From Anaeromyxobacteraceae bacterium (GTDB taxonomy: Bacteria > Myxococcota > Myxococcia > Myxococcales > Anaeromyxobacteraceae), in the NCBI GenBank assembly GCA_047602405.1, contig JASGHJ010000002.1, forward strand, positions 2,048,001 through 2,112,000: 64,000 nucleotides of DNA, read 5' to 3'. The notes beneath the pieces were generated by a model. The model was given only the letters and a program-made list of their open reading frames with translations. It did no database searches and was not told the DNA's origin. The translations under genes and the position numbers were made by a program. This document shows positions 14,760-49,375 of the stretch, in pieces (the stretch's first letter is position 1; every line of letters begins with the position of its first letter).

Positions 14760-14775
14760 AGCAATCGGCGTGCCC
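14760..14775 (-). promoter_or_regulatory. sigma54 promoter of hemA
   Basis: Minus strand GGGCACGCCGATTGCT (GG-N10-GC). Confidence 0.75.
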
Positions 14776-14828
14776 CTCGGTCGGACGAGGGATTTCCGGG
14801 GGTTTGGCCGGGGAGGACGCGAAAGCTT

Positions 14829-14844
14829 TGCGGGAGGTGCCCCG
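14829..14844. promoter_or_regulatory. Candidate enhancer (UAS) site upstream of the hemA promoter
   Basis: TGCGGGAGGTGCCCCG, 13/16 identical to the site at 41171, starting 54 nt beyond the promoter. Confidence 0.45.
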
Positions 14845-15092
14845 GACGAGCGGGGTCCGCGAAAGTGATGCACGGTGGGTCCACCTGCGGCGGTTGGTCA
14901 CAGGGTTTTCCCGTAACCTCATGTACTTGGAAGGTTTCGTGGGTACGCGGCGATTCACCGCAAGCGAACTCGAGGTCGCTTCCGGGTTGACCGACTCGGG
15001 TGTTTGCCCGATGCCCGACCCGGGGATGTTTCCTCACCGGGACGGGTACCGAGGGGGTACCGCGCGAGCCGCTCCTCGGCGAGACTGCCGCC

Positions 15093-15383
15093 ATGGCGAA
15101 CAAGTTCAACGGCGGCGCGAAGGTCGACGGCGGCTACTACTGGAACCCGAAGAACTGGGAGGTCGAGATCGTCCCCGACGGCGGCGGCACGCTCGCCGCG
15201 CCGGCGGACGTGAGCTACCTCAAGATCCCGCTCCTCGTCGCGATCCCGGCCAGCGTCACCCTCGGCGCGTCGTTCATGATGGCGCTCCCGATGATCGGGT
15301 TCATCGTCTTCGTGTCCGGGCTCTTCCAGCGGCTGTCCGGGAAGTCGGCGGTGACGACGCCGGGCGCGGGCGCGAAGCACTAG
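15093..15383 (+). CDS. Small hypothetical membrane protein (96 aa)
   Basis: [25 protein letters not shown] followed by a hydrophobic hairpin; strong GC3 codon bias. Confidence 0.75.
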
Positions 15384-15404
15384 CCATCTGCATCAGGGCG
15401 CCTC

Positions 15405-17051
15405 TCAGGGCGCCGGAGTCACGCCGCCGGGCAGCTGCCGCAGCACCTCGTAGGCCCGCGCGGCGCCCTCCATGTTGCCGTGCCGCGCCCGGAACGCGAC
15501 GAGGGTCCGCCAAGCGTTCGGATCCTGCGGCGCGAGGCGCGCGAACTGCTCGAGCGCCGCGTCGGCCTCGTCGAGGCGCCCGAGGTCCTCCGCCGCGAGC
15601 GCGAGGTTGCGCCAGGCGGAGCGCTTTCCGGGCTCGACCGCGAGCGCCTGCTGGAAGGCCGCGTAGGCCTCGTCGGACCGGCCCAGCTCCCGGGCGTTCA
15701 CCCCGAGGTTGTTCCAGTGCTTCGCCTCGGCCGGCTCGAGGGCCGCCGCCTGGCGCAGCGCGACGATGGCGTCCTCGCGCTGACCGCCGGCCCGGTAGCC
15801 CTCGGCGAGTGCCTCGAGGGCGATGGCGTTCGCCGGGTCGACCTCGAGCGCGGCGCGGAAGAGCGCCTCGTTCGAGCGCCAGTCGCCGACCCGGGCCCAT
15901 GCGACGCCCGCGTAGGCGAGCACGGCCACCGCGCCCACCACCCCGAGCACCTGCGACGCGCGCGGTGTCCGGACGAGGGCGTGGAGCCCCCAGACCACCG
16001 CGATGAAGAGGCCCACGCCGGGCAGGTAGGTGTAGCGCTCGCCGATCACCTGCGAGCCAACCTGCACGAGGCCGATCACCGGCACGAGCGTCCCGAGGAA
16101 CCAGGCGATCCCGACCGCGACCGCCGGCGTCCGCCGCGCCAGCCAGGCGACGGCGGCGAGGCCCGTGAGCACGGCGACGCCGAGGGCGACCTCCCACGCA
16201 GGCAGGGCGACCGGGTGGCGGTGGAAGATCGAGAGCCCGGACGGCCAGGCGTGGAGGAGCACGTAGCGCCCGTACCCCACGACCGCGGTCGCGACGCGGG
16301 CTCCGAGCGTGAACGACGCCTCCGCGACGGTGCCGCCCGCGAGCTGCGCCCGCATCGTCATCACGCTCGAGCCGACGGAGAGCGCGAGGAGCGGCAGCTT
16401 CTCGAGCGCGAGCGTCCGGAGCGGGGTCGTGTCGGTGCGGCGGAGTGGCCAGAGATCGAGGAGCAGGAGCAGGAAGGGCAGCGTGACCCACATCGGCTTC
16501 GCGAGGAGGCTCGCGGCCATGAGCGCGGCCACCGCCGCCAGCCGCCCCATCGACGGCCGCGCCGCGTGGCGCAGGTAGGCGAGCAGCGCGAGGAGCCCGA
16601 ACGCGGTCGAGAGCACGTCCTTTCGCTCCGCGACCCAGGCCACCGACTCGACGTGGAGCGGGTGCACCGCGAAGAGCGCCGCCACGAGCGCGCTCCGTCC
16701 GCGCGCGCCGGTCGCGCGGTCGAGGAAGCGGAACAGGAGGACGGTGCAGGCCGCGTGCAGGAGCGCGTTGACCGCGTGCGGGCCGGCCGCACCCGGCCCG
16801 AAGAGCGAGGCGTCCAGCATGTGCGACAGCCAGCTCAGCGGGTGCCAGTTGCTCGCATGGAAGGTCGTGAAGGCCCAGCGCACGCCCTCCCAGGTCAGGC
16901 CCGCCTGGACGGTCGAGTTCTCGAAGACGTAGCGGTTGTCGTCGAGGTGGATGTAGGGGTGCCCCAGCGTGCGCGCGTAGAGCGCGAGGGCGACCGCGGC
17001 GAGCCCCGCGGAGATCGCGGCGGCGGAGGGCTTCCTGGGTGTCGGATCCAT
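15405..17051 (-). CDS. TMTC-like GT-C membrane protein with C-terminal TPRs (copy 1)
   Basis: HLDDNRYV, NWHPLSWLSHMLD, HPLHVESVAWVAERKDVL, ERYTYLP, TPR WNNLG. Confidence 0.85.
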   Translation of the reverse strand: MDPTPRKPSAAAISAGLAAVALALYARTLGHPYIHLDDNRYVFENSTVQAGLTWEGVRWAFTTFHASNWHPLSWLSHMLDASLFGPGAAGPHAVNALLHAACTVLLFRFLDRATGARGRSALVAALFAVHPLHVESVAWVAERKDVLSTAFGLLALLAYLRHAARPSMGRLAAVAALMAASLLAKPMWVTLPFLLLLLDLWPLRRTDTTPLRTLALEKLPLLALSVGSSVMTMRAQLAGGTVAEASFTLGARVATAVVGYGRYVLLHAWPSGLSIFHRHPVALPAWEVALGVAVLTGLAAVAWLARRTPAVAVGIAWFLGTLVPVIGLVQVGSQVIGERYTYLPGVGLFIAVVWGLHALVRTPRASQVLGVVGAVAVLAYAGVAWARVGDWRSNEALFRAALEVDPANAIALEALAEGYRAGGQREDAIVALRQAAALEPAEAKHWNNLGVNARELGRSDEAYAAFQQALAVEPGKRSAWRNLALAAEDLGRLDEADAALEQFARLAPQDPNAWRTLVAFRARHGNMEGAARAYEVLRQLPGGVTPAP

Positions 17052-18996: not shown

Positions 18997-19002
18997 GCGC
19001 GC

Positions 19003-27170: not shown

Positions 27171-28058
27171 CTACTGGACGATGCGGAAGAGCTGCACCCG
27201 GTTGTTGTACCGGTCGGCGAGGAACAGGACCCCCTCCGCGTTCGCGCAGAGCTGCCCCGGGTAGTTCACGAGCCCCTCGCTCCAGCCGAGGCCGAGCTGG
27301 CGCCCCAGGAAGCCGCCGTCCGGCCCGAGGGCCACCACGCCGCTCCCGTTCTGGTCGACGACGAGGAGCTTCCCCTGCACCACCGCGAGGTAGGTGCCGA
27401 AGCTCATCCGCTCCTGGAGCCCCTGCGCGAGCGGCTTCAGCGCGGCCGCGGACTTCTCGGCGGAGTACAGCACGCCGCCCACGGCGTCGAGCGCGTAGAT
27501 CGTGCCCGAGGCGTCCATGGCGACGTCGGTGAACATGGCCTTGCCCTTCGGCAGCTCGAGCGAGCGGGCGACGGTGCCGCCCGCGCCCAGGACGAGGACC
27601 TTGCCGGTGGTGAGTTCGAGCGCGAGCACCTCGTCGGCCGGGCCGATCTTGAACGCCCCGACGCGCGCGCCCTCGACGCCCGGGAACTCGACCACCCCGC
27701 CGAAGCCGCCGTTCGCGTCCATCTTCACGATCCGGTGGGTCTTGCCGTCGAGCGCGAAGAGGTTGCCCTTCGAGTCGAGCTGCAGCCGGAGGGGCACGGT
27801 GAGCTGCGGGAGCTTCAGCTCCGTGCCACCCCCGAGGCGGCCGTCGCGGGCCGTGAACGTGAGCAGCCGGGCGTTGCCGGTGTCGGCGACCACGAAGCGC
27901 CCGTCGTCGGTGCAGGCCACGCCCTCGGGCGCGACCAGCGGGCCTTCCTTGGCGTCCGTGTAGACCGTGCCGGCGTGGACGAACGTGAAGCTCGCGGCGC
28001 GGGCGGTGCCGCCGGCGAGCAGCAGGGCGACAGCGAGGAGTGCGCGGGTCACGGTCAT
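27171..28058 (-). CDS. Secreted NHL-repeat beta-propeller protein, last gene of the osc-like cluster
   Basis: Signal peptide MTVTRALLAVALLLAGGTARA; PEGVA...FVVADTGNARL; YPGQL...LFLADRYNNRVQLF. Confidence 0.85.
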   Translation of the reverse strand: MTVTRALLAVALLLAGGTARAASFTFVHAGTVYTDAKEGPLVAPEGVACTDDGRFVVADTGNARLLTFTARDGRLGGGTELKLPQLTVPLRLQLDSKGNLFALDGKTHRIVKMDANGGFGGVVEFPGVEGARVGAFKIGPADEVLALELTTGKVLVLGAGGTVARSLELPKGKAMFTDVAMDASGTIYALDAVGGVLYSAEKSAAALKPLAQGLQERMSFGTYLAVVQGKLLVVDQNGSGVVALGPDGGFLGRQLGLGWSEGLVNYPGQLCANAEGVLFLADRYNNRVQLFRIVQ

Positions 28059-29329
28059 CACCTCCGGTACCGCTCGTGGCACTTCGTGCAGAGCTCGCTC
28101 GTCGTGGCGTACGGCATCATGTGCTTGTACTCGGTGCCGTGCGACCGGTGGCACGAGAGGCAGTTCACCTGCAGGTTCTTGTTGCGCGGGTCCTGCACCT
28201 TCGGGCCCATCGGGTGCGAGGAGTGCTTCAGCCAGTCGTGGCAGGTGCCGCAGAGTTCGGGCACGTCGGCCTTCTTGAGCAGCAGCGCCGTGTTGCCGGC
28301 GTGCGGCTCGTGGCAGGCCGAGCAGTCGCCGTCCTTCACGGGAGCGTGCTTCGTCGGCGAGAGGGTCTGCCGCTTCACGGTGTCGGCGTGGCAGCTCCCG
28401 CAGACCTGCACCTGGTTGGCCTTCACGAGCGCCTTGCCCCGCGAGGCGTGGGGCGAGTGGCACGAGAGGCACGCCTGGCCCTCGACGACCGGACGGTGCA
28501 CCCGGCCCTGGTCGAGCATCTTCGTGACCTGGCTCGCGTGGCAACCCTTGCAGAGGTCGAGCCCGACCTTCTTGGTCGAGAGCGCGTCCGGCGCGGTGGG
28601 CGCCGGATGGCACTGGGTGCACATCGCCTTCGCCACCGGCGCGTGGACCGTGTCGTAGAGGATGCCGCGCACGTTCGAGCCGTGCGGATCGTGGCAGCTC
28701 GTGCACGTGGACTTCTCGACCTTGTAGCCCTGGTGCGCCTTCGAGAAGAGCGGCGAGGTCGTCTTGTGGCAGCCCAGGCAGAGTGCCGGCTCGGCCGCCT
28801 TGAGGATGCCCCGGGCGGCCGCGGAGCCGTGCGGGTCGTGACAGGCGCCGCAGCCCTCGGTCACGGGCCGGTGCTTGAACTTCGCCTTCGCCGCCGCCTC
28901 GACGACCGGCTTGTGGCACCCGGCGCAGAGCTCGGTCTCCGGCTTCAGGAGCACGTTCTTCACGGAGGAGGCGTGCGGGTCGTGGCAGGAGACGCAGCCT
29001 TTCTCCTTGATCACCGGGTGGGTGCTCACCGGCTTCGCGGGCACCACGTTCGCGTGGCAGGAGACGCAGGCCCCGTCGCCGGTGCGGGCGAGGAGCTTCC
29101 CGTGGTCGGCGGCGTGCGGGTTGTGACACCCCGTGCAGGCCCGCGCCTTCACCGGCGTGTGCACGAACGGCTTCTCGAGCGTCTTCTGCAGCTGCCCGCC
29201 GTGGCAGTCGATGCAGAGCTTGCCGTCGGCGCCGGGCTTCAGCTTGAACTTGGGGTTCGGCGCGGCGGCGAGGGCCGGGCCCGCGGCGAAGCCACAAGCA
29301 AGGGCGAGGGCGAGGATGCGGGTCTTCAT
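28058..29329 (-). CDS. 16-heme periplasmic cytochrome c (paired CXXCH repeats)
   Basis: Signal peptide MKTRILALALACGFAAGPALA; 16 CxxCH counted; H-x-P...CxxCHxPH repeat. Confidence 0.93.
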   Translation of the reverse strand: MKTRILALALACGFAAGPALAAAPNPKFKLKPGADGKLCIDCHGGQLQKTLEKPFVHTPVKARACTGCHNPHAADHGKLLARTGDGACVSCHANVVPAKPVSTHPVIKEKGCVSCHDPHASSVKNVLLKPETELCAGCHKPVVEAAAKAKFKHRPVTEGCGACHDPHGSAAARGILKAAEPALCLGCHKTTSPLFSKAHQGYKVEKSTCTSCHDPHGSNVRGILYDTVHAPVAKAMCTQCHPAPTAPDALSTKKVGLDLCKGCHASQVTKMLDQGRVHRPVVEGQACLSCHSPHASRGKALVKANQVQVCGSCHADTVKRQTLSPTKHAPVKDGDCSACHEPHAGNTALLLKKADVPELCGTCHDWLKHSSHPMGPKVQDPRNKNLQVNCLSCHRSHGTEYKHMMPYATTSELCTKCHERYRR

Positions 29330-29337
29330 GGGGCCCC

Positions 29338-31305
29338 TCACTTCTTCTTCTCCACGACGTGGCAGCTGTCGCAGTCCCGGGCCGCGAAGGGCGCGTGGAC
29401 CTTTGCCTTGAAGAACTTGGGGTCCTTCGAGGCGTGCGGGGTGTGGCAGCTCACGCAGTCCATCGCCTTCGGCTCGATGGCGAGGTGGGCGGCCGCGAAC
29501 TTCTTCTCCTTCGGGTCGTGGCAGTTGCCGCACATGTCCTGCACCGGCTCGACCGCGAGCGCCGCGAACTTCGAGGCGTGCGGCTGGTGGCAGGTCGCGC
29601 AGTCGGAGACCGGGTCGTGCGCCTTCTCGGCCGCGATCTTGTCCTTCAGCGTCTTGTGGCACGAGAAGCACAGGTCCGGGGTCTTCGCGAGGAGGAGCTT
29701 CTTCAGCCCCGCCTTGTGCGGGCTGTGGCACTTCGAGCACTGGCCCTGGTCGAACGCCGCGTGGACGCTCTTCTGACCGGCGACCTTCTTCACCTCACCC
29801 GCGTGGCACTTCGCGCAGAGGGCCTTCTCGTCGGTCACCAGCATGCCCTGCACGTTCGAGCCGTGCGGGTCGTGGCAGGTCAGGCAGTCGCCCTTCGCGA
29901 AGGGGCCGTGCTTCGTGCCGTTCCCGGCCGCCACCTCGGCCATGAGGTCGCCGTGGCACTTCTTGCAGAGCGCGGCGCCCGCGTCGCGGAGGAGGCTCGG
30001 GTTCGCCGTGGCGTGCCCGTCGTGGCAGACGTCGCAGGTGCCGTCGAGCACCGGCTTGTGCGTGTAGGCGCGCACGAACCGGGTCTCGGCGTCCTTGTGG
30101 CAGGAGTAGCAGACCCGGTCGCTGCGGGACTTCAGCATCCCCGGGAAGGCCGAGCCGTGCGGGTCGTGACAGGCGATGCACTGCTCCTTCTTGAACGGCT
30201 GGTGCACGACCTTCTGCTTCAGGTCCTCCTTCGACTTCGCGTGGCAGGCCTGGCACTGCGCCGTGGCGGCCGCCTTGAGGAGGGCCGGCTCCTTCGAGGC
30301 GTGCGAGGCATGGCAGCTGCCGCAGCCCTGCGCGGAGTCGACCGGCTTGTGCGGCACGACCTTCTTGTCCGTCACTCCGGCGTGGCAGCGGGCGCAGAGG
30401 GCGTTGCCCGCCGCGAGCGTGAGCTTCGGGGAGGCGGAGGCGTGCGGATCGTGGCACCGGATGCAGTCGCCGGCCTTCACCGGTGCGTGGACCACCTTCT
30501 GCCCACCGGTGACGTCCTTCTCGGAGTGGCAGTCGGCGCAGAGCTTCCCGCCCTGGGAGGTGGTGGCGAACGGCTTCCCGGAGCGGGCGGGCTGATGGCA
30601 CGACGAGCAGGTCGCCGAGCTCACCGGGTCGTGAACCGAGGCCTTGAGGAGCGCCTTGCCGTCGGAGGCGTGCGGGTCGTGGCACTTGCTGCAGCTCACG
30701 ACCGGGTACTCCTCGTGCGCCTTCTTGAAGGCGCCCGACGAGGCGGAGTGGCAGGAACCGCACAGCGCGGCCTCCGCCTTCACGAGGAGCTGCGGCTGGT
30801 CGGAGGCGTGCGCGACGTGGCAGACCGCGCAGCCCTGCTTCTTGAGCGGCTCGTGCACCACCCGCTTCTCGAACGGCTTCCTGTCGTGACAGTCGTAGCA
30901 GGAGGCCGCGCCCTCGGCCTTGAGCATGAACTTCGCGTTCGAGCCGTGGGCGTCGTGGCACTGCGTGCACTTGCCCCCCTTGAGCACGGCGTGGACGTGC
31001 TTCTTGTCCATGCCGAGCTTCTCGGGCTTGTGGCAGCCGTAGCAGAGCTGGCTGCCCGGCTGCTTGAGCGCGAGCTTCGGCACGATGCCGTGCCGCAGGT
31101 GGCAGTCCTCGCAGCGCTTCTCCTTCACGGAGGTGTGCAGGACCTTGTTGCCGAGGTACCGGTCGGCGAACTTCTTGTGGCACTCCAGGCAGTCCTTCGT
31201 CTTGAAGGTCCGCTGCTGGGCGCCGGCGGCGGCCGGGACCGCGAGCGCCAGCGCGAGCGCCGCCCAGAGGCCGGTTCGAAGATTGGCGTGCACGGTGGCT
31301 CCCAC
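29338..31305 (-). CDS. 26-heme periplasmic cytochrome c (paired CXXCH repeats)
   Basis: Signal peptide; 26 CxxCH counted. Confidence 0.93.
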   Translation of the reverse strand: MGATVHANLRTGLWAALALALAVPAAAGAQQRTFKTKDCLECHKKFADRYLGNKVLHTSVKEKRCEDCHLRHGIVPKLALKQPGSQLCYGCHKPEKLGMDKKHVHAVLKGGKCTQCHDAHGSNAKFMLKAEGAASCYDCHDRKPFEKRVVHEPLKKQGCAVCHVAHASDQPQLLVKAEAALCGSCHSASSGAFKKAHEEYPVVSCSKCHDPHASDGKALLKASVHDPVSSATCSSCHQPARSGKPFATTSQGGKLCADCHSEKDVTGGQKVVHAPVKAGDCIRCHDPHASASPKLTLAAGNALCARCHAGVTDKKVVPHKPVDSAQGCGSCHASHASKEPALLKAAATAQCQACHAKSKEDLKQKVVHQPFKKEQCIACHDPHGSAFPGMLKSRSDRVCYSCHKDAETRFVRAYTHKPVLDGTCDVCHDGHATANPSLLRDAGAALCKKCHGDLMAEVAAGNGTKHGPFAKGDCLTCHDPHGSNVQGMLVTDEKALCAKCHAGEVKKVAGQKSVHAAFDQGQCSKCHSPHKAGLKKLLLAKTPDLCFSCHKTLKDKIAAEKAHDPVSDCATCHQPHASKFAALAVEPVQDMCGNCHDPKEKKFAAAHLAIEPKAMDCVSCHTPHASKDPKFFKAKVHAPFAARDCDSCHVVEKKK

Positions 31306-31306: not shown

Positions 31307-33029
31307 TCAGGCGCCGATGCGGGTGACGAAGACCTTGACCGGGAAGACGCCGCGAAGCTTGTCGGCGTACTCCTGGATCGCCTTCCCGACCGCCTCGACG
31401 TAGAGCTTCTTCGTGATCTCGGCCTCGACCTGCTCGAACGGCTGCTGGCTCGGCGGGGTGACGTCGGCCACTCGGATGGCGAAGTGCTGGTCCTCCGTGG
31501 CGTAGAGCCGGACGTCGCCCGGCTTCGCGCCGTCGAGGAGCTTCCGGAGCTCGTCGGTCATGGCCTTCGCCGAGACGACCCCGTCGCTCAGTACAACCGT
31601 GGCCTTATTGGGATCGAGCTGCCGCTCGCTGTTCTGGCGCAGCCAGCGGACGTCGGTGCCCGCGCCGAGCTTCGCCACGGCCGCCTCCGCGTCCTTGCGA
31701 GCCCCGAACCCGACGGTCTCGAGCTTGTAGAAGACCGGGAAGGCGTAGTCGGCGAGGTGGGCGTCGTAGTGCTTGCGCGCCGCGCCCTCCTCGACCTTCA
31801 CCTCCGGCGCGATCATCTTCCGGAGGAAGTAGCCGAAGACGATCTGGTCCTCGTAGGCGGACCGCGCTCGTTTGTACTCGGCGGAGTCGACGATGCCGAG
31901 CTCCTTCGCGCGGATGGGGACGACCCGGAGCGACACGAGGGCGTCCATCGTGAGCTCCTTCAGGCGGTTGACCTTCTTCTCGCGGGCCCCCCGGTCCATG
32001 CCGTGGAAGAGCTGCTTCTCGAGCGCCTCGGTGAGGTCGCCGACCGTGATGGGCGCCCCGCCCTTGAAGGTCGCGAGGACCCGCTTGTCGGTCTTGAGCT
32101 TCTCCCAGCCCTTCGCGTCGTAGTTGACCTTCTTCACGAGCGCCCAGTCGATCTTGGCGTCCGCGTCCGTGAGCTTCTTGTAGTAGGCCTCGAGCGTGAG
32201 CTTGTTCTGGCGGGCGACAGACTGCTTCTCGGCCTCGGCCTTCGCCTCGGCGGACTCGCCGAAGCGGAATCTCGTCCACCCGGGCCACCACGAAGCCGTC
32301 CTGGAGCTTGACGGCGTCGGTCAGGTGCCCCGCCTCGGTGAGCTGCACGGCGCCGAGCACCGCGGGGGCGAGATCCTTCCGCCCCGCCCAGGAGGACTCG
32401 AGGCCCCCGGTCGCCTTCTTGGCCTCGAGCGCCACGCCCGCGAGCGCGCCGAAGTCCTTGCCGTCGATGACGGCCTTGCGGAACACCTGGGCCTCGTCGA
32501 GCGTGGGGAACTTGATGGAGCGGAGCTTCCACTCCTTCACGGCCTCCCGGTAGAGCTTCTCGACCTCGAGCGCGTCCGGCTTCACGCCCTTCAGCGCGTC
32601 CCGCTGCACGCGCTCGCGGAGGGCCTCCTTCTCCCAGGACTCGACCGCGAACCTCACTTCGTCGAGGTCCTGGATGCCGGACTGGTGCGCCTCGGCGAGG
32701 AGGAGCCGGACGTTGAGGAGCCGCTGCAGCATCGGCTCGAACTCCATCTTCGCGGGCTTCGCGCCGCCCTTGTGCTCCTGGTGCGAGGCCGCCATGGCCT
32801 CCGCGAGCATCGAGAGGGTCACCTGCTCGTCGCCCGCCGTCGCGATGACGGTGTCGGCGAAGCGCTGGTCGAAGAGCGGCAGGTTCACCGAGGCGACCAT
32901 GTCGGGGGCGCCGCCGGTGCCCGCCGCGGCGGGCGGCGTGAGCGCCACGGGCTTCGAGGAACCGGCGCCCGGCATGGCGAGCGCGAGCCCGGGGGCGAGC
33001 GCGAGGACGGCGAGAAGGCGATTCGACAC
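31307..33029 (-). CDS. SurA/PrsA-like parvulin PPIase chaperone (OscH-like), +1 frameshift near 32268
   Basis: GTG 33029 with signal peptide; two SurA-N/rotamase-like halves split between ORFs 31605..33098 and 31307..32137. Span 3n+1; GAGATTCCGC corrected to GAGATCCGC restores VDEIRFGESAEAK. Confidence 0.75.
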
Positions 33030-33161: not shown

Positions 33162-33177
33162 TGGGCCATAGCACCCA
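33162..33177. promoter_or_regulatory. Candidate UAS palindrome
   Basis: TGGGC-CATAGC-ACCCA, starting 53 nt beyond the sigma54 promoter. Confidence 0.55.
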
Positions 33178-33257
33178 CTCGCACGCGGTGCGCCGCCCGG
33201 CCCCACCCCCCGAAGCTTCTGCGCGGCCCGACGGAAAACCGAGGTGCAAGCGGTGTC

Positions 33258-38636: not shown

Positions 38637-38657
38637 TAACACACCATCAGGCCAGGC

Positions 38658-39971
38658 TTAGTCCTTCGCGTGGCACTTGTTGCACTGGCTGCGGGCCCAG
38701 GGGCCGAACGCGGTCGCAGGGCGGCCGTTGTACGCCGCCTGCTGCTGCGCCTGGCTGTAGCCGTAGTTGATCTTGTTCTCCGTCGTGGACGAGTCGTAGA
38801 TGGCCGCGTTGGAGGCGTCGGCGACCGTCATGAACTCGTTCAGGTAGAAGAACCGCAGCATGCTCTCGAAGCCCGACGCGTGCGCGCGGTGGCAGGAGAG
38901 GCAGGACACGTTGGTGGTCGTGTCCGCCGCCACCGGCGTGGCCGCGCGAGCCTTGAGGCCGTCGTACGTCGCGATCGAGCTGTCCGTGAAGCCGTACTCG
39001 AAGGGAACGAGCGTCGAGTAGCGATTCGCGGAGGCACCAAGAATGCCCGAGGTGATGTACCGGTTGTAGTTGTCAGCGATCTCGGCGGTCAGCTTCGCGC
39101 CGTTGCCAGCCGGGTGGCGGAGGCCGGCCATGCCGGAGGTGTAGGAGTTCTTGAGCATCTCCCCGTGGCAGTTCGCGCACCACTCGGAGGAGTTACGGCC
39201 GAGGGCGTACTGGGTCTGGGTCGTGCCCTCCGACCGGTTGTAGCTCGAGGCGACGACGGCGTCGAACACGGGAGCGGTGAACGCGAAGGAGCCCGTGAGC
39301 GACTTCGGCTGGTAGCCAACGCCGGCGAGGATGCGGTACACGCCGCGGGCGGAGACCCCGGCGATCGGGTTGGCGGAGTTCGTGTACGAACCCGAGCCGA
39401 AGATCGGGAGACCCGTCGAGGCGACGGAGCCGTCCGCGAAGCGGCGGTAACGGCCGTGCGGGTCGTGGCAGGACTGGCAGCCAAGGTTCGCGGCCGGGTA
39501 GGTGCCGCCCGGGGCGACCGTGAGCTCAGGGTCCGCGACGTAGCCGAAGTCCGCCGCGACCACGTTGTGACCGTGGCGCTCGCCGGGGTTGCCGTCCGCG
39601 GCGACCGTGCCGCGGATCGTCACGTTCATGGTCTTCTTCAGCCACGCGAAGTCGCCACCCGGGGTGTTCTCAACCGGCGTGGTGGTCGTGTCGTACGGCG
39701 TCACGCCAGCGGTGGAGATGTGGTAGCTGCTCGGCGCCGTGTCGGCCGCCTGGTGGCAGTTGAGGCACGAGCCGGACTGGTCGTTCGCCTTGAGGAGGTA
39801 CGGGCCCGTCCCCTGCGCGAAGGTGCGGCCGGTCACGTTCGGCGCGCCCTCGAACGAGTTGTGCATCGAGTGGCAGCCCTCGCACTCGGCGACGCCGCCG
39901 GAGTGGAAGGCGTACGCGTTCGTACCCACGAACGCGAGCATCGCCGCGACTGCAATCTTCATGAACTTCAT
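38658..39971 (-). CDS. omcS: OmcS-family hexaheme extracellular (nanowire) cytochrome c
   Basis: Signal peptide, then FHSGGVAECEGCHSMHNS; SCLNCH; PSSYHIST; TPGGDF; APGGTYPA; CHDPHGRYRRF; SEWCANCH; LRHPAGNGAK; CLSCHRAHASGF; ends CNKCHAKD. All match my recollection of Geobacter OmcS; 6 CxxCH. Confidence 0.93.
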   Translation of the reverse strand: MKFMKIAVAAMLAFVGTNAYAFHSGGVAECEGCHSMHNSFEGAPNVTGRTFAQGTGPYLLKANDQSGSCLNCHQAADTAPSSYHISTAGVTPYDTTTTPVENTPGGDFAWLKKTMNVTIRGTVAADGNPGERHGHNVVAADFGYVADPELTVAPGGTYPAANLGCQSCHDPHGRYRRFADGSVASTGLPIFGSGSYTNSANPIAGVSARGVYRILAGVGYQPKSLTGSFAFTAPVFDAVVASSYNRSEGTTQTQYALGRNSSEWCANCHGEMLKNSYTSGMAGLRHPAGNGAKLTAEIADNYNRYITSGILGASANRYSTLVPFEYGFTDSSIATYDGLKARAATPVAADTTTNVSCLSCHRAHASGFESMLRFFYLNEFMTVADASNAAIYDSSTTENKINYGYSQAQQQAAYNGRPATAFGPWARSQCNKCHAKD

Positions 39972-40046
39972 CTTGCTTCCCCTTGGTTGGTACTGCGGTC
40001 CCCTGCTTGCTTCGTTACTGCTGCTTGCTGCGCCTGTGATTCCCCC

Positions 40047-40070
40047 CGCCGCCCGTCCCACCGGGCGGCG
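40047..40070 (-). promoter_or_regulatory. Stem-loop in the intergenic leader of omcS
   Basis: cgccgcccg-tcccac-cgggcggcg; no U-tract on the coding strand. Confidence 0.5.
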
Positions 40071-40087
40071 TTGCTGCCTGAACCTGG

Positions 40088-41053
40088 TTACTGCGTGCTC
40101 GCTGCCGAGACCCTGAAGACGCTGACCCCGCGGTTCGCCCGCTGGGAGACGAAAAGCCGGTTGCCGGCCACGACGAGGTCGGTCGGGCCGACGAGGCTGT
40201 GGGGCCGGTTGCCGCGGTAGCCGAACTCCTTCACGAAGTTCAGCTTGCGGTCGAAGACGATGACCGCGTTCTTGAGGACGTCGGAGACGTAGATAAATCC
40301 GTCGTCCCCGCGCGCGATGGCAGAGAGCACCTGGAACTTGCCGGGGGCGCTGCCCTTCGTGCCGAATAGCATCGGCTTGCCTTGGGGCGGCGCGACGCAG
40401 GCCGCGAACATCGTTCTCAGCGTGAAGAGGACGTTCCCCTCCGCATCGACATCGAAGCCGCCCATCTCGGCCGAGGCCTTCTTCTCCTCGACCTTGCGCG
40501 GGTCGATCTCCTCGCCGGCGAAGTCGATCTCGTCGCGGAAGTCCCGCGCCGCGAAGACGGCGCCGTCGAGTCCGAAGCCGACGACCTTCAGCGCCATGAA
40601 GCTCGCGAGGTAGATGCGGTCGCCGCGCACCACGAGACCGTCCGGCTGGAAGCCCTCGAGGAAGCCCTTCGGTGCGCCGGCCAGCGTGAGCTCGCCCTTC
40701 ACCTCGCCGCGGAAGTTGCAGCGGGTGACGCGCCACCGCTCGGCGTTCACCGAGACCACCACGAGGTCGCCGCCCTCGAGCCCGGCGACGAGGCGGGGCA
40801 TCCCGAGCTCCTCGGAGGTGCCGAACGCGAACGTCTCCATGCCGGCCTGGTTGAAGACGCGGGCAACGCCGCCGGTGACCACCCAGAGCTCGCGGTTGCC
40901 GGCGTCCCAGGACAGCTTCGCCTCGGAGGCCTTGAGCAGGCCGGCCGGGCTCGCGAGGCCGTGGAGGTAGGCCACCTCGAACGCGCGGGCCGAGGCCGGG
41001 GCGACCGAGGTCGCGGCGGCGAGGGCGAGGGCGATGGAGGTCGTGGCGCGCAT
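40088..41053 (-). CDS. Secreted NHL-like beta-propeller protein upstream of omcS
   Basis: Signal peptide MRATTSIALALAAATSVAPASARA; FGTKGSAPGKF, IYVSD, EFGYRG, PTDLVV..LFVSQ. Confidence 0.82.
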   Translation of the reverse strand: MRATTSIALALAAATSVAPASARAFEVAYLHGLASPAGLLKASEAKLSWDAGNRELWVVTGGVARVFNQAGMETFAFGTSEELGMPRLVAGLEGGDLVVVSVNAERWRVTRCNFRGEVKGELTLAGAPKGFLEGFQPDGLVVRGDRIYLASFMALKVVGFGLDGAVFAARDFRDEIDFAGEEIDPRKVEEKKASAEMGGFDVDAEGNVLFTLRTMFAACVAPPQGKPMLFGTKGSAPGKFQVLSAIARGDDGFIYVSDVLKNAVIVFDRKLNFVKEFGYRGNRPHSLVGPTDLVVAGNRLFVSQRANRGVSVFRVSAASTQ

Positions 41054-41074
41054 CGTGTGGTGCACGCCCACCTG

Positions 41075-41090
41075 TGCATCAGGGAGGCCA
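41075..41090 (-). promoter_or_regulatory. sigma54 promoter of the NHL-omcS operon
   Basis: Minus strand TGGCCTCCCTGATGCA (GG-N10-GC). Confidence 0.6.
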
Positions 41091-41140
41091 ACCCCGATCC
41101 CCTGGTTTCCAGGGCTTTTCGGTTCTTCGATTACCAGGGG

Positions 41141-41186
41141 TGGGGGCTTTCACCCATGAGCACGTTCGGGTGGGGGAGATGCCCCA
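41141..41186. promoter_or_regulatory. Tandem UAS palindromes (30-bp period)
   Basis: TGGGG-GCTTTC-ACCCA (41141) and TGGGG-GAGATG-CCCCA (41171). Confidence 0.65.
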
Positions 41187-41381
41187 CCCAAGATCCCCCA
41201 ATCCACGGGGCGCCAGAATTGCGCCGCATCAGGTGCGCGCACGTAAACGTCCGTGTTCACGGAGGGACGACGGGAGCCGGAAGAGTCCGAAGGTGTGCGG
41301 CGGGAGTCACCAGGCCTGCCACCCCGGGGCACGAGGTCGAGCGCAACCCCGCGCGGACGGCGCGGTGCGCCTACCTGGGCG

Positions 41382-42377: not shown

Positions 42378-43492
42378 CCGATCCACCGGTTGGAGGCGTG
42401 CACGACCACCGCCGCAGCCTGGAGCACCGTGCCCGCGCCCACGACCCACGGGAACGCCCGACCGAGCCGGCCGGCGACGCAGGCGAAGAGCGGGAAGACC
42501 ACCGCCACGTAGCGCACGTAGGACGTCATGCTGCCGGTGAGCGCCGGGATGCCCCCGACCACGAGGACGAAGACGAGCATCGCCCGGTCGAGCCTGCGCC
42601 ACGAGGTCGCGACCGCCGCCACGAACAGCACGAACGCCGCGCGGTCGAGCACGCTCGTCGTGAACCCGTTCCAGCTGAGCTTCACCTCGACGAAGTTGCG
42701 GGTGAACCAGTCGAGCGGGTGGAGCACGTTCGCGAGCGAGTTCTGCGCGAGGAACACCTTCTGGGCGTCGAACCCGGCGAGGGCGTCGCCGGTGGAGGCG
42801 TACAGGATCCCGAGGTACGCCGCGAAGCCGACCGCGAACGCGAGCGGCATCGGGAGCTTCCTCCAGGCCGGCCGCCACGCGGGCGCCAGGGCGGCGACGG
42901 CGACCGTCGCCGGCAGCGCGACCATGAGCCCGGTCGGGCGCGTCAGCGGCAGGAGGAAGGCGAAGGCGGTCGCGAGCCCGAGCTCGTTGCGCCTCAGATG
43001 GAAGAAGAGCCCGACCGCGAGCAAGAGGAAGAGCGCCTCGGTGTAGAGGAGCCCCGCGTAGAATGTGGTCGGAAACGCCACGAGGAGCAGGCACGCTCGC
43101 GAGGCCGTCGCCTCGTCGCGCTCCGCGCGGACGAGCAGGAACAGGTAGGCCACCGCGCCGAGGAAGGCCGCCGTGGAGAGCACGAGGCCGGCGACGAGGG
43201 CGTCGCCGCCCGCGAGCGGCCTCAAGAGCTTCAGCAGGAACGGCAGGAGCGGATAGAACGCGCTCGAGATGTGCTGGGGCTGGTAGCCCCAGTCGGCCAG
43301 GAACAGGTAGTGGTTCGCGTCCCAGGTCTTGAAGCACGAGCGGAGCGTCGGCTCCTCGTCGAACGGATACTGGAAGTTGGCCCAGTACGCCGGCTGGAAG
43401 AACGGCAGGATCCACGGGCTCGCGGCCACGAGCGCGAGCACGGCCAGCTTCGCGGCGAGCGCGCACGCGAGCACCTTCCAGAGCGGCTTCAC
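42374..43492 (-). CDS. PIG-V/GT76-like mannosyltransferase-family membrane protein
   Basis: WDANHYLFLADWGY, AFYPLLP, YTEALFL, TRPTG, RY...FPLF. Confidence 0.75.
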   Translation of the reverse strand: MKPLWKVLACALAAKLAVLALVAASPWILPFFQPAYWANFQYPFDEEPTLRSCFKTWDANHYLFLADWGYQPQHISSAFYPLLPFLLKLLRPLAGGDALVAGLVLSTAAFLGAVAYLFLLVRAERDEATASRACLLLVAFPTTFYAGLLYTEALFLLLAVGLFFHLRRNELGLATAFAFLLPLTRPTGLMVALPATVAVAALAPAWRPAWRKLPMPLAFAVGFAAYLGILYASTGDALAGFDAQKVFLAQNSLANVLHPLDWFTRNFVEVKLSWNGFTTSVLDRAAFVLFVAAVATSWRRLDRAMLVFVLVVGGIPALTGSMTSYVRYVAVVFPLFACVAGRLGRAFPWVVGAGTVLQAAAVVVHASNRWIG

Positions 43493-45264: not shown

Positions 45265-45311
45265 GGCCGCGAACTCTCCCCGTCCCGTGTCCCCGCGTCA
45301 ACCCGGCGGGC

Positions 45312-48300
45312 TTACAGGTGGCAGCTCCTACACGCGGCCGCCGCCTTGTTCGCGGTGATGTCCACGTTCCCGTTCGCGTGGAGCGCCGGGTTGGTGAGCC
45401 GGACGTTCCCGCCTGCCACCGTGCCCGCCGCGTCGGAGTGGCAGAGCGAGCAGTCGTTCTGCGTCCCGAGCGACCCGTGCGCCCCGGAGTGCCACGCTCC
45501 GTTGAACGTCGGCGCGCCGTGGCAGCTCGAGCAGGTGATCGTCTCGCCCGTCCAGATCGCCGTAGCCCCCTTGCCCGTGTAGTCGAGGGTGTGGGTCACG
45601 TCGTCGGGCGTCGTCCACTGGTAGGTGCCCTGGTAGTTCCCGTGGCAGTACGTCGACGCGCAGCTCGCGGTGCCGCGGGTCCAGGAGGCCGCGACCGGCC
45701 CCTGGAGCGTCCAGGTCTTCGGGAACGACACGTCCAGCACCCCGTCCATGTGCCCGATGTTCGTGAGCGGCGGCGTGACGTGGCAGGCGTCGCACGTGTA
45801 GCCCGCGGTCACCGCCCCGGCGGTCACATGCTTCTGGTGCGCGCCGACGCCGAGCGTGGCCGTCGAGGTGTCGCCGTTCACCGCGGTGGGCGGCGCCGAC
45901 TGGACGTACTTCGGGTCCGCCGTGCCGGTGGCCGTGCGGCTCGAGTCGCCGTGACAGGAGGCGCAGGTGAGGTCGATGATGTCGAGCTTGCCGTTGATGT
46001 GGGTCGCGGCGTTCACCGACGACGACGTGTAGCCGGTGTGGCAGCGGCCGCAGTCCGGCGTCGCCGGGTGCGCCGGCCCGGGCGGCGGCGCCCCGTGGCA
46101 GCTGTTGCAGGCGGTCTGGCCCGCGCTCACCTGCGTCCACTTCGGCGTGGTCGCGACGCCGCCGGCGGCGAGCGTCGCGCCGTGGCAGTAGGTCGAGGCG
46201 CAGGTCGCGGCGTTGCGGTCCCACGCGGGCGCCGCGCCGTCGGTCTTCACGAAGTCGCTGAAGGCCAACTGGCGCACGCCGTCGGCGTGGAGGTTGGTCG
46301 AGGGCACCGGGTGGCAGTCGCTGCAGGCGAAGGCCCGGCCGATGTTCCCGGCGTAGACGTGCTTCTGGTGCGCGCCGACCGCGAGCGTGGTGGTCGCGCT
46401 CTCGTCGCCGGTGCCGGTCGGCGGCGCGGCCCTCTGGAGGTCGGTGCCGGCGCGGTTCGAATCGCCGTGGCAGGACGCGCAGCTGAACGCGAGGAGGTCG
46501 AGGTTGCCGTCCGCGTGCTTCGCCTTCGAGTACTGCAGCCCGGCGTCGGCCGGGTGGCAGCCGCCGCAGGCCGCGCGCTGCGGGTGCGGCGAAGGTGGCG
46601 GGGCGGCGTGGCAGCTGCCGCAGGAGGCCTCGGACGCGCCGCCGGTCCAGGCCGGCGTCGTGTGCGTGCCGCCGGGGAGCGTCGCGCCGTGGCAGTACGA
46701 GCTCGAGCAGCTCGTGCCGTTCCAGGTGGTCGTCTTCCCGTTGATGGTCTTGAACGCGGTCGCGACGGTGCCGTTCGCGTGCGAGAGGTCGGCCGGGACC
46801 GCGTGGCACGCGTCGCAGGCGACGCCGTCGGTCAGGGTCGAGCCGTTCACGTGCGCGGCGTGCGCGCCGACGGCGCGGGTCGAGGTCGCGGTCTCGTTCT
46901 GCGTGCCCTGCGGCGGCGCGGCCTTCTTGAGGTCGGCCGCGGTGTAGCTCGTCACCCGCGTGCCGTGGCAGAAAGTGCAGTTCTGCGCCCAGGTCGCCGA
47001 GCCGCCGAGGTGGCAGCCGGTGCAGGAGACGGCGACCACCCCGCCGAGGAGGTCGGCGCCGTGGCAGCCCTTGCAGCCGCCGAGATCCTGGTTCGCCTGG
47101 AGGCCGTGGTTCGTCGGGAGCACCCAGTCGGTCGGGTGGTACTTCGTGACGTCGACCGTGCCGTTCACGTGCTTGCCGCCCGCGAGGTCGATCGCGCCGC
47201 CGGCGGTGACCGTGTTCGCGTGGCAGGTGCGGCAGGCCGCGAGCGTCGGGTGCGGCGCCGGGGGCGGCGCGCCGTGGCAGGTGCCGCAGGCGGCCTCGGC
47301 CGCGCCGCCGGTCCAGGCCGGGGCGGTCTTCGTGCCGCCGGCGTTCAGCGTGGCGCCGTGGCAGTAGGTCGACGCGCAGGTCTGCGTGGCCGTGTACGAG
47401 GGCGCCGCGCCGTCCTTCGTGGCGAGCGCGCCCCAGGTGAGCTTCCTGACGCCGTCGACGTGCGAGAGGTCGGTCGGGACCGCGTGGCACTCGGTGCACG
47501 CGACGCCGCTCGACATCGTGCCGCCGGAGAGGTGGCTCTGGTGCGCGCCGACGGCGCGGGTGGAGGTCGCGAGCTCGCCCTGCGTGCCGACCGGCGGGGC
47601 GGGCTTGTTCGCCGAGCGGTTCGCGTCGCCGTGGCAGAAGGTGCAGTTCGACTGCCAAGTCGCGCCGTGGCACGTCGCGCAGGAGATGCCGGTGCCGCCG
47701 CCGGCGAGGTCGGCGCCGTGGCAGGACTTGCAGGAGGCGAGGTCGGCGTTCGCCGCGTAGCCGTGCACGGTGGGCGTCGCCCAGTTCGCCGGGTGGTAGT
47801 CGTTCACCTCCACGGTGCCGTTCACGTGCATGCCGTTCGCGACCTTGATGGTCACGTCGTCGTTCTCCACCGTGCCGGGGTGGCAGATGTGGCAGGCGGT
47901 GGACTTCGCGGTGTGCGGGGCCGTGGTGGGTGGGGCGCCGTGGCAGGTGCCGCAGTCGGCCTGCGTCCCGTCGACCTTCGTCCACAGCGGCTGCTGGAGC
48001 GTGCCCCCGGAGAGCGTCTGGCCGTGGCAGTAGACGCTGCAGGTCGCGTTCGTGGTGTCGAACGTGGGCGTGCCCTTCGCGCCGGCGAGGCCGGAGAAGG
48101 TCACCTTCACGACGCCGTCGGAGTGGAGCTGGTCGGCCGGGACCACGTGGCACGCGCTGCACTCGAACGCCTTCGACAGCGGGCCGGCGGCGAGGTGCGC
48201 CTGGTGCGCGCCGACCGCGCGGTCGGTGGTGGCGGTCTCGCCGTCGAGGCCGATGGGCGGCGCGGACTTGAGGAGGTCGGTCGTGACGCGGGTCGAGTCG

Positions 48301-48941
48301 CCGTGGCAGGTGGCGCACCCGCCGGTGAGGTCGACCTGGCCGTTCATGTGCTTCTCGGTCACCGCCGACGGCGCCGAGCCGAGCGTGAGCGAGCCGGCGT
48401 GGCACCTCTGGCAGTCGGTGCGGGCCGGGTGCGGCGCCTTCGGGGGCACACCGTGGCAGCTGCCGCAGGAGGCCTGCGGCGGGGAGACGACGTTCCACTT
48501 CGGGGCCGGGTTCGTGCCGTCGGCGAGCGTCGCGCCGTGGCAGTAGACGGTGCAGGTGGCGGTCTCGCGGTTCCAGCTCGCGGTGAAGCCGGCCGGCGCG
48601 GCGAGGGGGCCGAAGCGCACCGCGACCTTGCCGTCGATGTGGGCGAGCGGGTTCGCGGCGTCGGGCGCCGGGTGGCACGCCGCGCAGTCAAGCTTGGGCG
48701 AGAGGTGCGCGGGGCCGAGGACGTGCGCGGAGTGCGCGCCGACCGAGAGCGCGGTCGGGCTCGACTCGCCCTTCACGGACCGCGGCGGGGCCCCGCCGTC
48801 GCTCTCGACGCCACCGTGGCACCGGGTGCACTTCGACTCGGTGGCGCCCTCGGCGCCGACGACGGTGCGGGACTGGCAGCCGGCCCCCGCGACGAGCGCG
48901 GCAGCGGTGATCACCACGAGGTGGAGCGAGCGCGACGTCAT
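45312..48941 (-). CDS. Giant repetitive multiheme cytochrome c lipoprotein (35 putative hemes; CxxxxCH/CxxCH type)
   Basis: Lipobox-like AGAGC; 29 CX2CH, 2 CX3CH and 4 CX4CH counted; six modules each containing VGAHxxH. Confidence 0.92.
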   Translation of the reverse strand: MTSRSLHLVVITAAALVAGAGCQSRTVVGAEGATESKCTRCHGGVESDGGAPPRSVKGESSPTALSVGAHSAHVLGPAHLSPKLDCAACHPAPDAANPLAHIDGKVAVRFGPLAAPAGFTASWNRETATCTVYCHGATLADGTNPAPKWNVVSPPQASCGSCHGVPPKAPHPARTDCQRCHAGSLTLGSAPSAVTEKHMNGQVDLTGGCATCHGDSTRVTTDLLKSAPPIGLDGETATTDRAVGAHQAHLAAGPLSKAFECSACHVVPADQLHSDGVVKVTFSGLAGAKGTPTFDTTNATCSVYCHGQTLSGGTLQQPLWTKVDGTQADCGTCHGAPPTTAPHTAKSTACHICHPGTVENDDVTIKVANGMHVNGTVEVNDYHPANWATPTVHGYAANADLASCKSCHGADLAGGGTGISCATCHGATWQSNCTFCHGDANRSANKPAPPVGTQGELATSTRAVGAHQSHLSGGTMSSGVACTECHAVPTDLSHVDGVRKLTWGALATKDGAAPSYTATQTCASTYCHGATLNAGGTKTAPAWTGGAAEAACGTCHGAPPPAPHPTLAACRTCHANTVTAGGAIDLAGGKHVNGTVDVTKYHPTDWVLPTNHGLQANQDLGGCKGCHGADLLGGVVAVSCTGCHLGGSATWAQNCTFCHGTRVTSYTAADLKKAAPPQGTQNETATSTRAVGAHAAHVNGSTLTDGVACDACHAVPADLSHANGTVATAFKTINGKTTTWNGTSCSSSYCHGATLPGGTHTTPAWTGGASEASCGSCHAAPPPSPHPQRAACGGCHPADAGLQYSKAKHADGNLDLLAFSCASCHGDSNRAGTDLQRAAPPTGTGDESATTTLAVGAHQKHVYAGNIGRAFACSDCHPVPSTNLHADGVRQLAFSDFVKTDGAAPAWDRNAATCASTYCHGATLAAGGVATTPKWTQVSAGQTACNSCHGAPPPGPAHPATPDCGRCHTGYTSSSVNAATHINGKLDIIDLTCASCHGDSSRTATGTADPKYVQSAPPTAVNGDTSTATLGVGAHQKHVTAGAVTAGYTCDACHVTPPLTNIGHMDGVLDVSFPKTWTLQGPVAASWTRGTASCASTYCHGNYQGTYQWTTPDDVTHTLDYTGKGATAIWTGETITCSSCHGAPTFNGAWHSGAHGSLGTQNDCSLCHSDAAGTVAGGNVRLTNPALHANGNVDITANKAAAACRSCHL

Positions 48942-49045
48942 CTATCCCCCTGCTGCTCGGTGCGACCGCCCCCGCGGACACACCTCTGCCGGCGACACGC
49001 CGTGGAGAAGCTCCCCACCCCACGTGAACCCGGTGTGAAGGGCGC

Positions 49046-49087
49046 AGTGTAGGGAATCTCGCCGGCGGAGTTCTGGATCGGGATCAA
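49046..49087 (-). promoter_or_regulatory. FNR/CRP-family class II promoter for the giant cytochrome
   Basis: Minus strand TTGAT-CCCG-ATCCA (49074-49087), centred at -41.5 relative to a TACACT -10 box (49046-49051). Confidence 0.65.
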
Positions 49088-49249
49088 CTCGCGCACGCGA
49101 AACCCTCAGGTGCGCTGGGGTTCTTCCGAGCGGCACGAAGAACACGGAGAAGGGGGGCACACCGACCCCCCGATTGGAATGCCCCCCTCCGTCACGTAGA
49201 GCCGCACCCCTCCCCCGAGAACCGCGGCTCGACTGCTGCGAGACCCCTT

Positions 49250-49266
49250 AGCACGCGTCGTGCCGA
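49250..49266 (-). promoter_or_regulatory. sigma54 promoter about 300 nt upstream of the giant cytochrome
   Basis: Minus strand TCGGCACGACGCGTGCT (GG-N10-GC). Confidence 0.65.
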
Positions 49267-49329
49267 CGTCCGCGCGAGGCGCGTTCACGTGAATCCGCGG
49301 GCTTGGAGGCGAATGTGCGCGGGAGCGAA

Positions 49330-49375
49330 TGGGCCAAATGCCCCAGCGCGGGTCGGGGGTGGGGGCAAATCCCCA
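49330..49375. promoter_or_regulatory. Tandem UAS palindromes (30-bp period)
   Basis: TGGGC-CAAATG-CCCCA (49330) and TGGGG-GCAAAT-CCCCA (49360). Confidence 0.65.

Follow-up and report, generated by a model that had tools for sequence, protein, structure and literature searches.

In a 64,000-nucleotide stretch of DNA from a soil bacterium of the Anaeromyxobacteraceae (G000:C2:2048001-2112000, 73% GC; hereafter the window, G000 being the genome that holds it), a 16-bp palindrome stands upstream of the sigma54 promoters of nanowire-cytochrome and heme-synthesis genes. Comparison with relatives supports this 16-mer as a conserved regulatory site tied to the sigma54 promoters of omcS, hemA, and large cytochrome genes. 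Sequence evidence points to the NtrC-type sigma54 activator encoded at 10504..11865 (minus strand) as its probable reader, which would be switched on by a neighbouring kinase with a predicted periplasmic heme c. This reading builds on directly observed features, namely the sites, their conservation and their spacing to sigma54 sites, together with the domains of the kinase and the activator and the linkage of their genes. If it is true, nanowire-cytochrome and heme-synthesis genes are switched on together.

The window carries an osc-like cluster (an OmcS homologue, NHL genes, a chaperone with a peptidyl-prolyl isomerase (PPIase) domain, cytochromes with 26, 16, and 29 hemes, and hemA) and also encodes two kinase/sigma54-activator pairs and one NarL pair. 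Thirty-seven genomes of the genus and 40 more distant ones were scanned; compared genomes bear G-numbers and compared loci L-numbers. Genes were called with a simple codon model that misses frameshifted genes, so that 'intergenic' is only approximate, and sigma54 sites were scored in bits on a consensus -24/-12 matrix.

A conserved palindrome at sigma54 promoters

A preliminary description of this DNA had named four minus-strand GG-N10-GC sites, ahead of hemA, the chaperone gene, the NHL-omcS genes, and a giant cytochrome gene, and all four are in place. They belong to the hemA-kinase-activator genes (14775-14760, GGGCACGCCGATTGCT, 15.3 bits), the PPIase, 26-heme, 16-heme, and NHL genes (33109-33094, GGGCACACGGGTTGCA, 15.2 bits), NHL-omcS (41090-41075, TGGCCTCCCTGATGCA, 10.2 bits), and the 29-heme cytochrome (49265-49250, CGGCACGACGCGTGCT, 12.6 bits). 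Each of the four is a predicted -24/-12 promoter ahead of its target gene, kept in relatives. The targets themselves all lie on the minus strand. The omcS gene (38658..39971) encodes a hexaheme OmcS homologue (phmmer to OmcS 6ef8/6nef, E 3e-133) with its closest relative in Anaeromyxobacter sp. (85% identity), and is preceded by a beta-propeller (NHL-like) gene without a Pfam match (40088..41053). The giant cytochrome (45312..48941) has 1209 aa and 29 CxxCH motifs. The hemA gene (13460..14722, Pfam GlutR) encodes a glutamyl-tRNA reductase and is a second, lineage-restricted copy, the other copy of G000 lying at G000:C2:2706803. The chaperone promoter precedes a putatively OscH-like PPIase-domain gene (31307..33029), split by a frameshift near 32240 with Rotamase_2 in both pieces and present as a single open reading frame (ORF) in the relative L032, and then the genes for the 26-heme and 16-heme cytochromes and an NHL-repeat protein (27171..31293).

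Palindromes accompany all four promoters, as had been claimed, and the hemA copy is the weaker match; the spacings first reported for them (54, 53, 51, and 64) mix two conventions by one base. On one measure the gaps to the sigma54 site are 53, 52, 50 (with a second copy at 80), and 64 nt (with a second at 94). Scored on a matrix of 98 sites in relatives, the hemA copy (14829-14844, gap 53) is weak at 11.1 bits and shares its end with an NmpR-type site, and the chaperone copy (33162..33177, gap 52) reaches 14.9 bits and is poorly kept in relatives. The NHL-omcS promoter has a proximal copy at 41141..41156 (gap 50, 19.1 bits) and a distal one at 41171..41186 (gap 80, 20.5 bits), and the 29-heme promoter a proximal copy at 49330..49345 (gap 64, 18.1 bits) and a weak distal one at 49360..49375 (gap 94, 7.3 bits). 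The doubling with an exact 30-bp period is real at 41141/41171 and 49330/49360, although the 49360 copy is weak and the period is not fixed in relatives.

The motif first proposed, TGGG(G/C)-N6-(C/A)CCCA, marks a conserved site once refined, but its literal form is too loose. TGGG-N8-CCCA is not specific by itself, since it has 78 genomic matches in G000, mostly inside genes; it was dropped in favour of a refined consensus, TG(G/C)G(T/G)(G/C)A-WW-T(C/G)(A/C)C(C/G)CA, built from a five-site window matrix and further intergenic matches of G000 outside the window. The extra intergenic matches of the five-site matrix lie before decaheme cytochromes (C1:325916, C1:329265, and a 29-bp doublet at C2:1331300/1331329) and at a response-regulator/Fe-S kinase locus (C2:1491318). 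Checked against background in the genus, the strict refined pattern has 50 matches in 24 of 37 genomes and its reversed control 0, the genomes being kin and G000, the source of the pattern, supplying 4 of the 50. With one or two mismatches allowed, the reversed control is as common as the 16-mer. This last result and the 78 literal matches would suit palindromes that are chance GC-rich repeats or RNA hairpins without a protein partner; the 50 to 0 count of strict matches speaks against that explanation, as does the placement of the sites, which are intergenic, upstream of predicted starts, and kept in position at orthologous and non-orthologous targets alike, and its probability is close to negligible.

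The association with sigma54 promoters is visible both within G000 and among relatives. The 16-mer (at most one mismatch) is carried by 4 of 169 putative sigma54 promoters of G000, three of them in the window; the 33094 promoter, whose site has two mismatches, is not among the 169, as the frameshifted gene behind it was missed. When the first match of each genome is taken, 15 of 24 loci have a sigma54 score of at least 9 within 300 nt, the background being 196 of 1937 upstream positions within 200 nt. The neighbours of these first matches include hemA (L060, L068, L073), omcS (L054, L069, L071, L074), and other cytochromes. On the larger matrix, made of 98 sites outside G000 and G010, nine intergenic positions rank first in G000, where 15% of the DNA is intergenic, and seven of the nine precede multiheme or omcS genes. 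A sigma54 site with one or two 16-mers is found at the NHL/omcS promoters of many Anaeromyxobacteraceae-like loci, and a sigma54 site with the 16-mer also at those of the Acidobacteriota loci L097, L100, L101, and L122.

The gaps between 16-mer and sigma54 site cluster near 31, 51-53, 62-63, 72-75, 83, 95-96, and 103 nt. Phasing over the 98 sites gives R 0.36 at 10.5 bp and 0.59 at 11 bp, with a Rayleigh p of 0.002 for 49 distinct gap values at 10.5 bp; in a smaller set, p is 0.003 for 33 sites and 0.02 for 24 distinct gap values. Because the gaps cluster at helical intervals, the spacing at the 29-heme promoter, rightly described before as about one helical turn longer, is one step of a general phasing across sites.

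Further copies of the 16-mer in G000 stand in other settings. Of three tandem genes for lipoprotein cytochromes with 9-10 hemes (G000:C1:323015-332207), two have a top-scoring 16-mer, NmpR-like repeats, and a TTGACC hexamer, but no clear sigma54 site. A decaheme cytochrome gene (C2:1329185-1330987) has a 29-bp doublet of the 16-mer with a weak GG-N10-GC at gaps of 50 and 79, the geometry of the NHL promoter. At G000:C2:1491318, a gap of only 21 nt separates one of the strongest 16-mers from a sigma54 site. This 16-mer, with a receiver gene ahead of a membrane-bound hydrogenase-like operon on one side and a kinase gene with Fe-S/hydrogenase domains on the other, may link the regulon to an electron-donor module, or may be a repressor site.

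A candidate reader and a candidate heme sensor

The activator at 10504 consists of a receiver, an AAA+ domain, and a Fis-type helix-turn-helix (HTH) with the helix SRDTLRYR. Close orthologues, with a nearly invariant HTH, occur in 26 of the 37 genus genomes. An orthologue is found in 22 of the 24 motif-positive genomes of the genus, and the two that have none are 68-70% complete. Three regulators had been put forward as candidates: 10504 fits best, the activator at 63380 fits poorly, and the NarL-type regulator is kept as a rival (Fisher p for the distribution of regulator and motif in the genus 0.0002, 0.64, and 0.001, respectively, uncorrected for kinship).

In a quick tree, 10504 lies within a clade of 17 activators (SH-aLRT 99). 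Activators adjoining omcS operons in Acidobacteriota, Thermodesulfobacteriota, and other Myxococcota loci have the common helix (S/T)(R/Y)DxLRY and group with 10504. The order at L102 and L313 is kinase-activator-promoter-NHL-omcS, with a CxxCH in the L313 kinase, and clade members also occur at L122 and L298. Two 16-mers lie directly behind the activator gene at L122 and four directly upstream of the activator gene at L295. Helix and site were compared by scoring the best site beside an adjacent activator on its inner ten bases only. The outer G2/C15 was present at all four loci with Arg-type activators (S-R-D-x-L-R-Y) and at none of six with Tyr-type activators (Y-D-x-(L/I)-R-Y), TTGGTGAAATAACCAA being an example of their sites; the six include the promoters of the two paralogues of G000. 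The recognition-helix Arg of 10504 aligns with Fis Arg85, a residue that, in the accessible part of the source, contacts the outer G of Fis sites (PMC4784862).

A reader other than 10504 might be the 63380 activator, which lies in the same cytochrome island, also with a CxxCH kinase, or a Tyr-type paralogue (G000:C2:513585, C1:451501), since these have the DxLRY helix and the site core in common with the 10504 system. The 63380 activator has close orthologues in 31 of the 37 genus genomes; it was rejected because its distribution does not follow the motif, with orthologues in seven motif-negative genomes (G006, G009, G011, G016, G019, G046, G047) and none found in the motif-positive G048, G050, and G004. 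The paralogues, for their part, have their own variant sites, which lack the outer G, before adjacent operons. Binding of the 16-mer by any of these proteins is very improbable. The operons in question (G000:C1:445098-453036 and C2:507214-516439) are duplicates, each encoding a beta-barrel-like protein, a hexaheme cytochrome, an Fe-S protein, and an aldehyde-oxidoreductase-like enzyme. Both copies have a Tyr-type activator of their own, and in both a variant site stands at a distance of 94-95 nt from a sigma54 promoter.

The NarL-type regulator is encoded with a HisKA_3 kinase at 49436..51165 (minus strand). A 7-2-7 inverted repeat is the geometry of NarL-family sites, and the 16-mer has this 7-2-7 form. 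The regulator could thus bind the 16-mer and modulate promoters opened by some other activator, which would account for 16-mers without a sigma54 promoter. Its gene ends 61-91 nt from the doubled site at 49330/49360, its genus distribution matches the motif (27 of 37 genomes), and three Acidobacteriota genomes with the motif at their omcS promoters (G053, G054, and G055) have orthologues. Nevertheless, no close orthologue was found in G056, G062, G064, G071, and G079 (best at most 52% identity or none; completeness not given), which carry the 16-mer or near variants together with activators of the 10504 clade. The NarL pair moreover travels with an operon for a 9-heme cytochrome and cytochrome b (L297, L314), and this explanation does not account for the outer base that tracks the activator helix. 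Binding by the NarL-type regulator is therefore unlikely, and 10504 remains the preferred reader.

The partner of 10504 would be the membrane histidine kinase at 11883..13385 (minus strand), whose gene adjoins both hemA and the activator gene and which has a periplasmic CxxCH Cache-like domain between two predicted membrane helices. Its CxxCH (C151, C154, H155) is invariant in 16 of 16 aligned orthologues. The model of the domain (pLDDT 82.5) finds WalK and the c-heme sensor GSU0935 as its best Foldseek matches, the latter at rank 2 with E 1.5e-3 and a low TM-score. Such sCache_heme domains (DUF3365/Tll0287, GSU0582/GSU0935), in the accessible part of their description, bind heme c, and some sense nitric oxide (NO) (PMC12889525). 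The kinase resembles them in its single Cache fold with a short CxxCH helix between the last strands, and differs in having no Pfam PF11845 match. The kinase is predicted to carry a covalent heme c sensor.

In the mechanism proposed here, phosphorylated 10504 would open the sigma54 complex after binding, at a distance of 50-95 nt upstream, to one site or to two on the same face of the helix. Expression of NHL-omcS, of the 29-heme cytochrome, and of the activator's own hemA-kinase-activator genes would rise as a result, the last giving positive feedback and extra heme precursor. What the kinase heme perceives might be redox state, or else a gas, NO for instance. A second activator, one that uses NmpR-type sites and in Myxococcus responds to oxygen, would be the main or an additional input at two of the promoters, those of hemA and the chaperone gene.

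Several results weigh against this account. G000 had a part in defining the consensus by which the 98 matrix sites were picked. Of the three strongest sites of G000, two (C1:325916 and C1:329265) precede decaheme cytochromes without a good sigma54 site (best 5.7 and 7.2), so that the 10504 protein may act by another route at some strong sites. Second sites in relatives occur at 17, 19-21, and 29-31 bp, at odds with an exact 30-bp period as a feature, and in the smaller set the phasing of distinct gaps is not significant after a period search (p 0.18). The helix-site comparison gave no site in 5 of 16 rows, and L115 (helix TRDQLRYR, with a core match without the outer G) was dropped, its sigma54 match being inside omcS on the opposite strand. 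Because the Tyr-type activators form one clade, the covariation of helix and site amounts to one evolutionary event, for which a Fisher p is too favourable. A strict 16-mer match occurs in 11 of the 40 more distant genomes, and four of these (G063, G073, G075, G083) have no match to the 10504 HTH at E 1e-10; in G073, two of three strict matches are inside ORFs. The NarL-type regulator shows nearly the same genus distribution as 10504 (27 against 26 of 37). A search for expression data turned up 20 RNA runs, all of them assembled contigs with at most 0.11 of the sequence words, and no raw reads of the organism. Lastly, at the chaperone promoter the 16-mer is close by in only 3 of 18 loci, and a site of the GCGCA-N5-TGCGC type, read by eye, in all 18.

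NmpR-type sites and dual control

GCGCA-N5-TGCGC is the NmpR consensus, established by electrophoretic mobility shift assay in Myxococcus xanthus according to the accessible part of the source, which also gives the doublets a period of 29-30 bp, a 15-bp site plus 14-15 bp (PMC11841059). In the window, such sites are found at two to three of the promoters. At hemA, a proximal site (14819..14833, CCGCA-N5-TTCGC on the minus strand) is joined by a distal one (14859..14873, GTGCA-N5-TTCGC on the minus strand), with a similar element in aligned orthologues. The chaperone promoter has one such site as its conserved element (33179..33193, GCGCA-N5-TGCGA on the minus strand) and a second, weaker one at 33210-33224. 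Two adjacent matches with one mismatch each lie at the NHL-omcS promoter (41210..41238), and the 29-heme promoter has no NmpR-type match.

Orthologous promoters allow the two motifs to be weighed against each other. Of the 37 genus genomes, 20 have the window-type second hemA copy, for the most part at a distance of a few kb from the activator gene; the more distant copy is present in nearly all. All 20 orthologous hemA promoters have a strong sigma54 site at 33-40 nt from the start. The left half of the 16-mer is kept at a gap of 49-55 in 13 of them and a core CGCA-N5-TGCG at a gap of 42-45 in 17, and on either side of this core there often lies a 16-mer with which it has a half-site in common. 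The chaperone promoter has a sigma54 score of at least 13 in 17 related loci and the window. G000 also encodes a protoglobin kinase (C2:1353038) with a nearby opposite-strand activator (C2:1348396), a pair that by gene order fits the arrangement described for Anaeromyxobacter in the accessible part of the same source (PMC11841059).

An NmpR-type activator might drive the sigma54 promoters alone, with the 16-mer in an accessory or repressing role or arising in part from the overlap of NmpR half-sites. The better conservation of CGCA-N5-TGCG (17 against 13 of 20 at hemA, 18 against 3 of 18 at the chaperone promoter), the bases that both motifs share at hemA, the doublet period of 29-30 bp (PMC11841059), and the protoglobin kinase with its neighbouring activator argue for this possibility. 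It conflicts with the TGGG...CCCA form of the 16-mer, which is not NmpR-like, with the absence of an NmpR-type match at the 29-heme promoter, and with the conservation of the 16-mer at NHL/omcS promoters across relatives. The idea that the 16-mer is merely the place where two NmpR sites join was rejected, since the flanks of 47 exact 16-mers lack NmpR half-sites. Control by an NmpR-type activator alone is accordingly distinctly unlikely.

Dual control of the nanowire and heme genes by the 16-mer reader and an NmpR-type input is the likely arrangement. The proposal of one activator for all four promoters was too simple, as the NmpR-type site is the better conserved one at the chaperone and hemA promoters, and a regulon made wholly of sigma54 promoters is not supported either, given the decaheme genes behind C1:325916 and C1:329265. 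From the idea of a single activator that co-induces heme synthesis and cytochrome export, the shared site at omcS, hemA, and the large cytochromes is supported, and single-activator control is not.

The region upstream of hemA has a further occupant, a divergent gene for a 96-aa protein without a Pfam match (15093-15383, plus strand), which relatives keep in the same place. A second pair of 16-mers, present in several of them at gaps of 138-141 and 161-162, may serve this gene.

Known systems and neighbouring features

The NmpRSTU system of Myxococcus xanthus shares with the window an NtrC-like activator, a heme-based sensor (predicted in the window), and a regulon with a heme-synthesis gene, and its consensus recurs at two to three of the promoters here. 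In contrast, the 16-mer is a different sequence with half-sites in another arrangement, and the 11883 kinase would sense through a periplasmic CxxCH Cache-like domain where the accessible description of NmpRSTU has a protoglobin (PMC11841059). The regulons of NtrC-family (Fis-HTH) activators in Desulfovibrio vulgaris likewise combine receiver, AAA+, and Fis HTH with palindromic, often tandem sites (PMC4641369, PMC3333781), most of which, in the accessible text, lie within 100 nt of a -24/-12 promoter (PMC4641369); unlike theirs, the targets here are nanowire cytochrome and heme genes. The 16-mer was not found in the available text and supplements of the D. vulgaris regulon literature, motif logos in figures excepted.

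Similar in gene content is the osc cluster of Geobacter sulfurreducens (GSU2506/GSU2507), which, in the accessible parts of its descriptions, has an OmcS homologue, an NHL gene, a PPIase-type chaperone, large multiheme cytochromes, and a linked kinase and sigma54 activator (PMC13194489, PMC11077965, PMC10599522). The Geobacteraceae loci L315 and L316 (kinase/PAS-activator/NHL/omcS/omcT) differ in their activator, which has the helix SRITLYRK and falls outside the 10504 clade, and have neither a sigma54 site of at least 11.5 bits nor a 16-mer directly before NHL-omcS. An extension of the regulon to Geobacter-type omcS loci was rejected, as 20 Geobacteraceae loci have no full 16-mer before the NHL/omcS sigma54 site and weak core matches only. 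By these sequence comparisons, Geobacter-type omcS loci use a different activator.

The literature on GSU2506/GSU2507, in its accessible parts, offers only expression or deletion data, and searches of the open-access literature found neither a binding site nor a direct activator described for the omcS-type nanowire genes of any organism or for Anaeromyxobacter cytochromes. The earlier impression that the motif is new appears right, since no description of the 16-mer strings was found in open-access literature (figure logos and RegPrecise excepted). The 16-mer and its regulon are a new site of a known mechanism class; sigma54 two-component activation itself is ordinary. Now that a site and four promoters have been named in a cultivable genus, along with candidates for the activator and the sensor, the trigger of nanowire and heme synthesis becomes directly testable. 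In metagenome bins, the 16-mer can serve to predict regulons for extracellular electron transfer.

A wider, tentative picture joins these elements and is offered as a speculation. A cross-phylum clade of sigma54 activators with the helix D-x-L-R-Y might, together with heme-c sensor kinases, form the master switch for OmcS-type nanowires outside Geobacter. Anaeromyxobacter would have gained a private hemA copy inside the feedback loop, with sites that interlock with oxygen-responsive NmpR-type sites, so that nanowires would be built only when low oxygen coincides with a periplasmic heme signal. What would set this regulon apart from those of the paralogues is one Arg/Tyr change in the recognition helix.

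Other features of the island touch on its integrity and extent. Frameshifts occur at about 32240, 35984, 37350, and 37890 and beyond the window end (window-relative about 68140 and 70750). Set against the intact relative L031-L033, 5 of 40 genes compared are frameshifted: three osc machinery genes, purU, and one other. These are likely assembly indels, decay of the export genes being the less likely alternative. Directly after omcS and ahead of export-type genes, a GC-rich hairpin followed by seven T lies on the minus strand at about 38600-38630; a scan of 38400-41400 for sigma70 promoters and terminators gave nothing above shuffles and did not list this hairpin. Several relatives have a separate sigma54 site for the export-type genes after omcS, and G000 is without one.

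Three glycosyltransferase-like membrane genes (41293-45312) stand between the 29-heme cytochrome and the NHL-omcS promoter and are absent from the close relative L032; the many glycosyltransferase-like genes across the island suggest surface glycosylation tied to the cytochrome cluster. Near the far end of the window, an operon of 4Fe-4S, NrfD, GcvH-like, triheme cytochrome, and GcvH-like genes (58862-64000 and beyond) has its own sigma54 site (G000:C2:2111002) and is preceded by the CxxCH kinase, a 181-aa gene, and the 63380 activator, a block that recurs in the Acidobacteriota locus L314. On the plus strand at 9539-10459, a gene for a sigma70-family factor lies behind a strong sigma54 site (G000:C2:2057481), an arrangement that possibly forms a sigma cascade.

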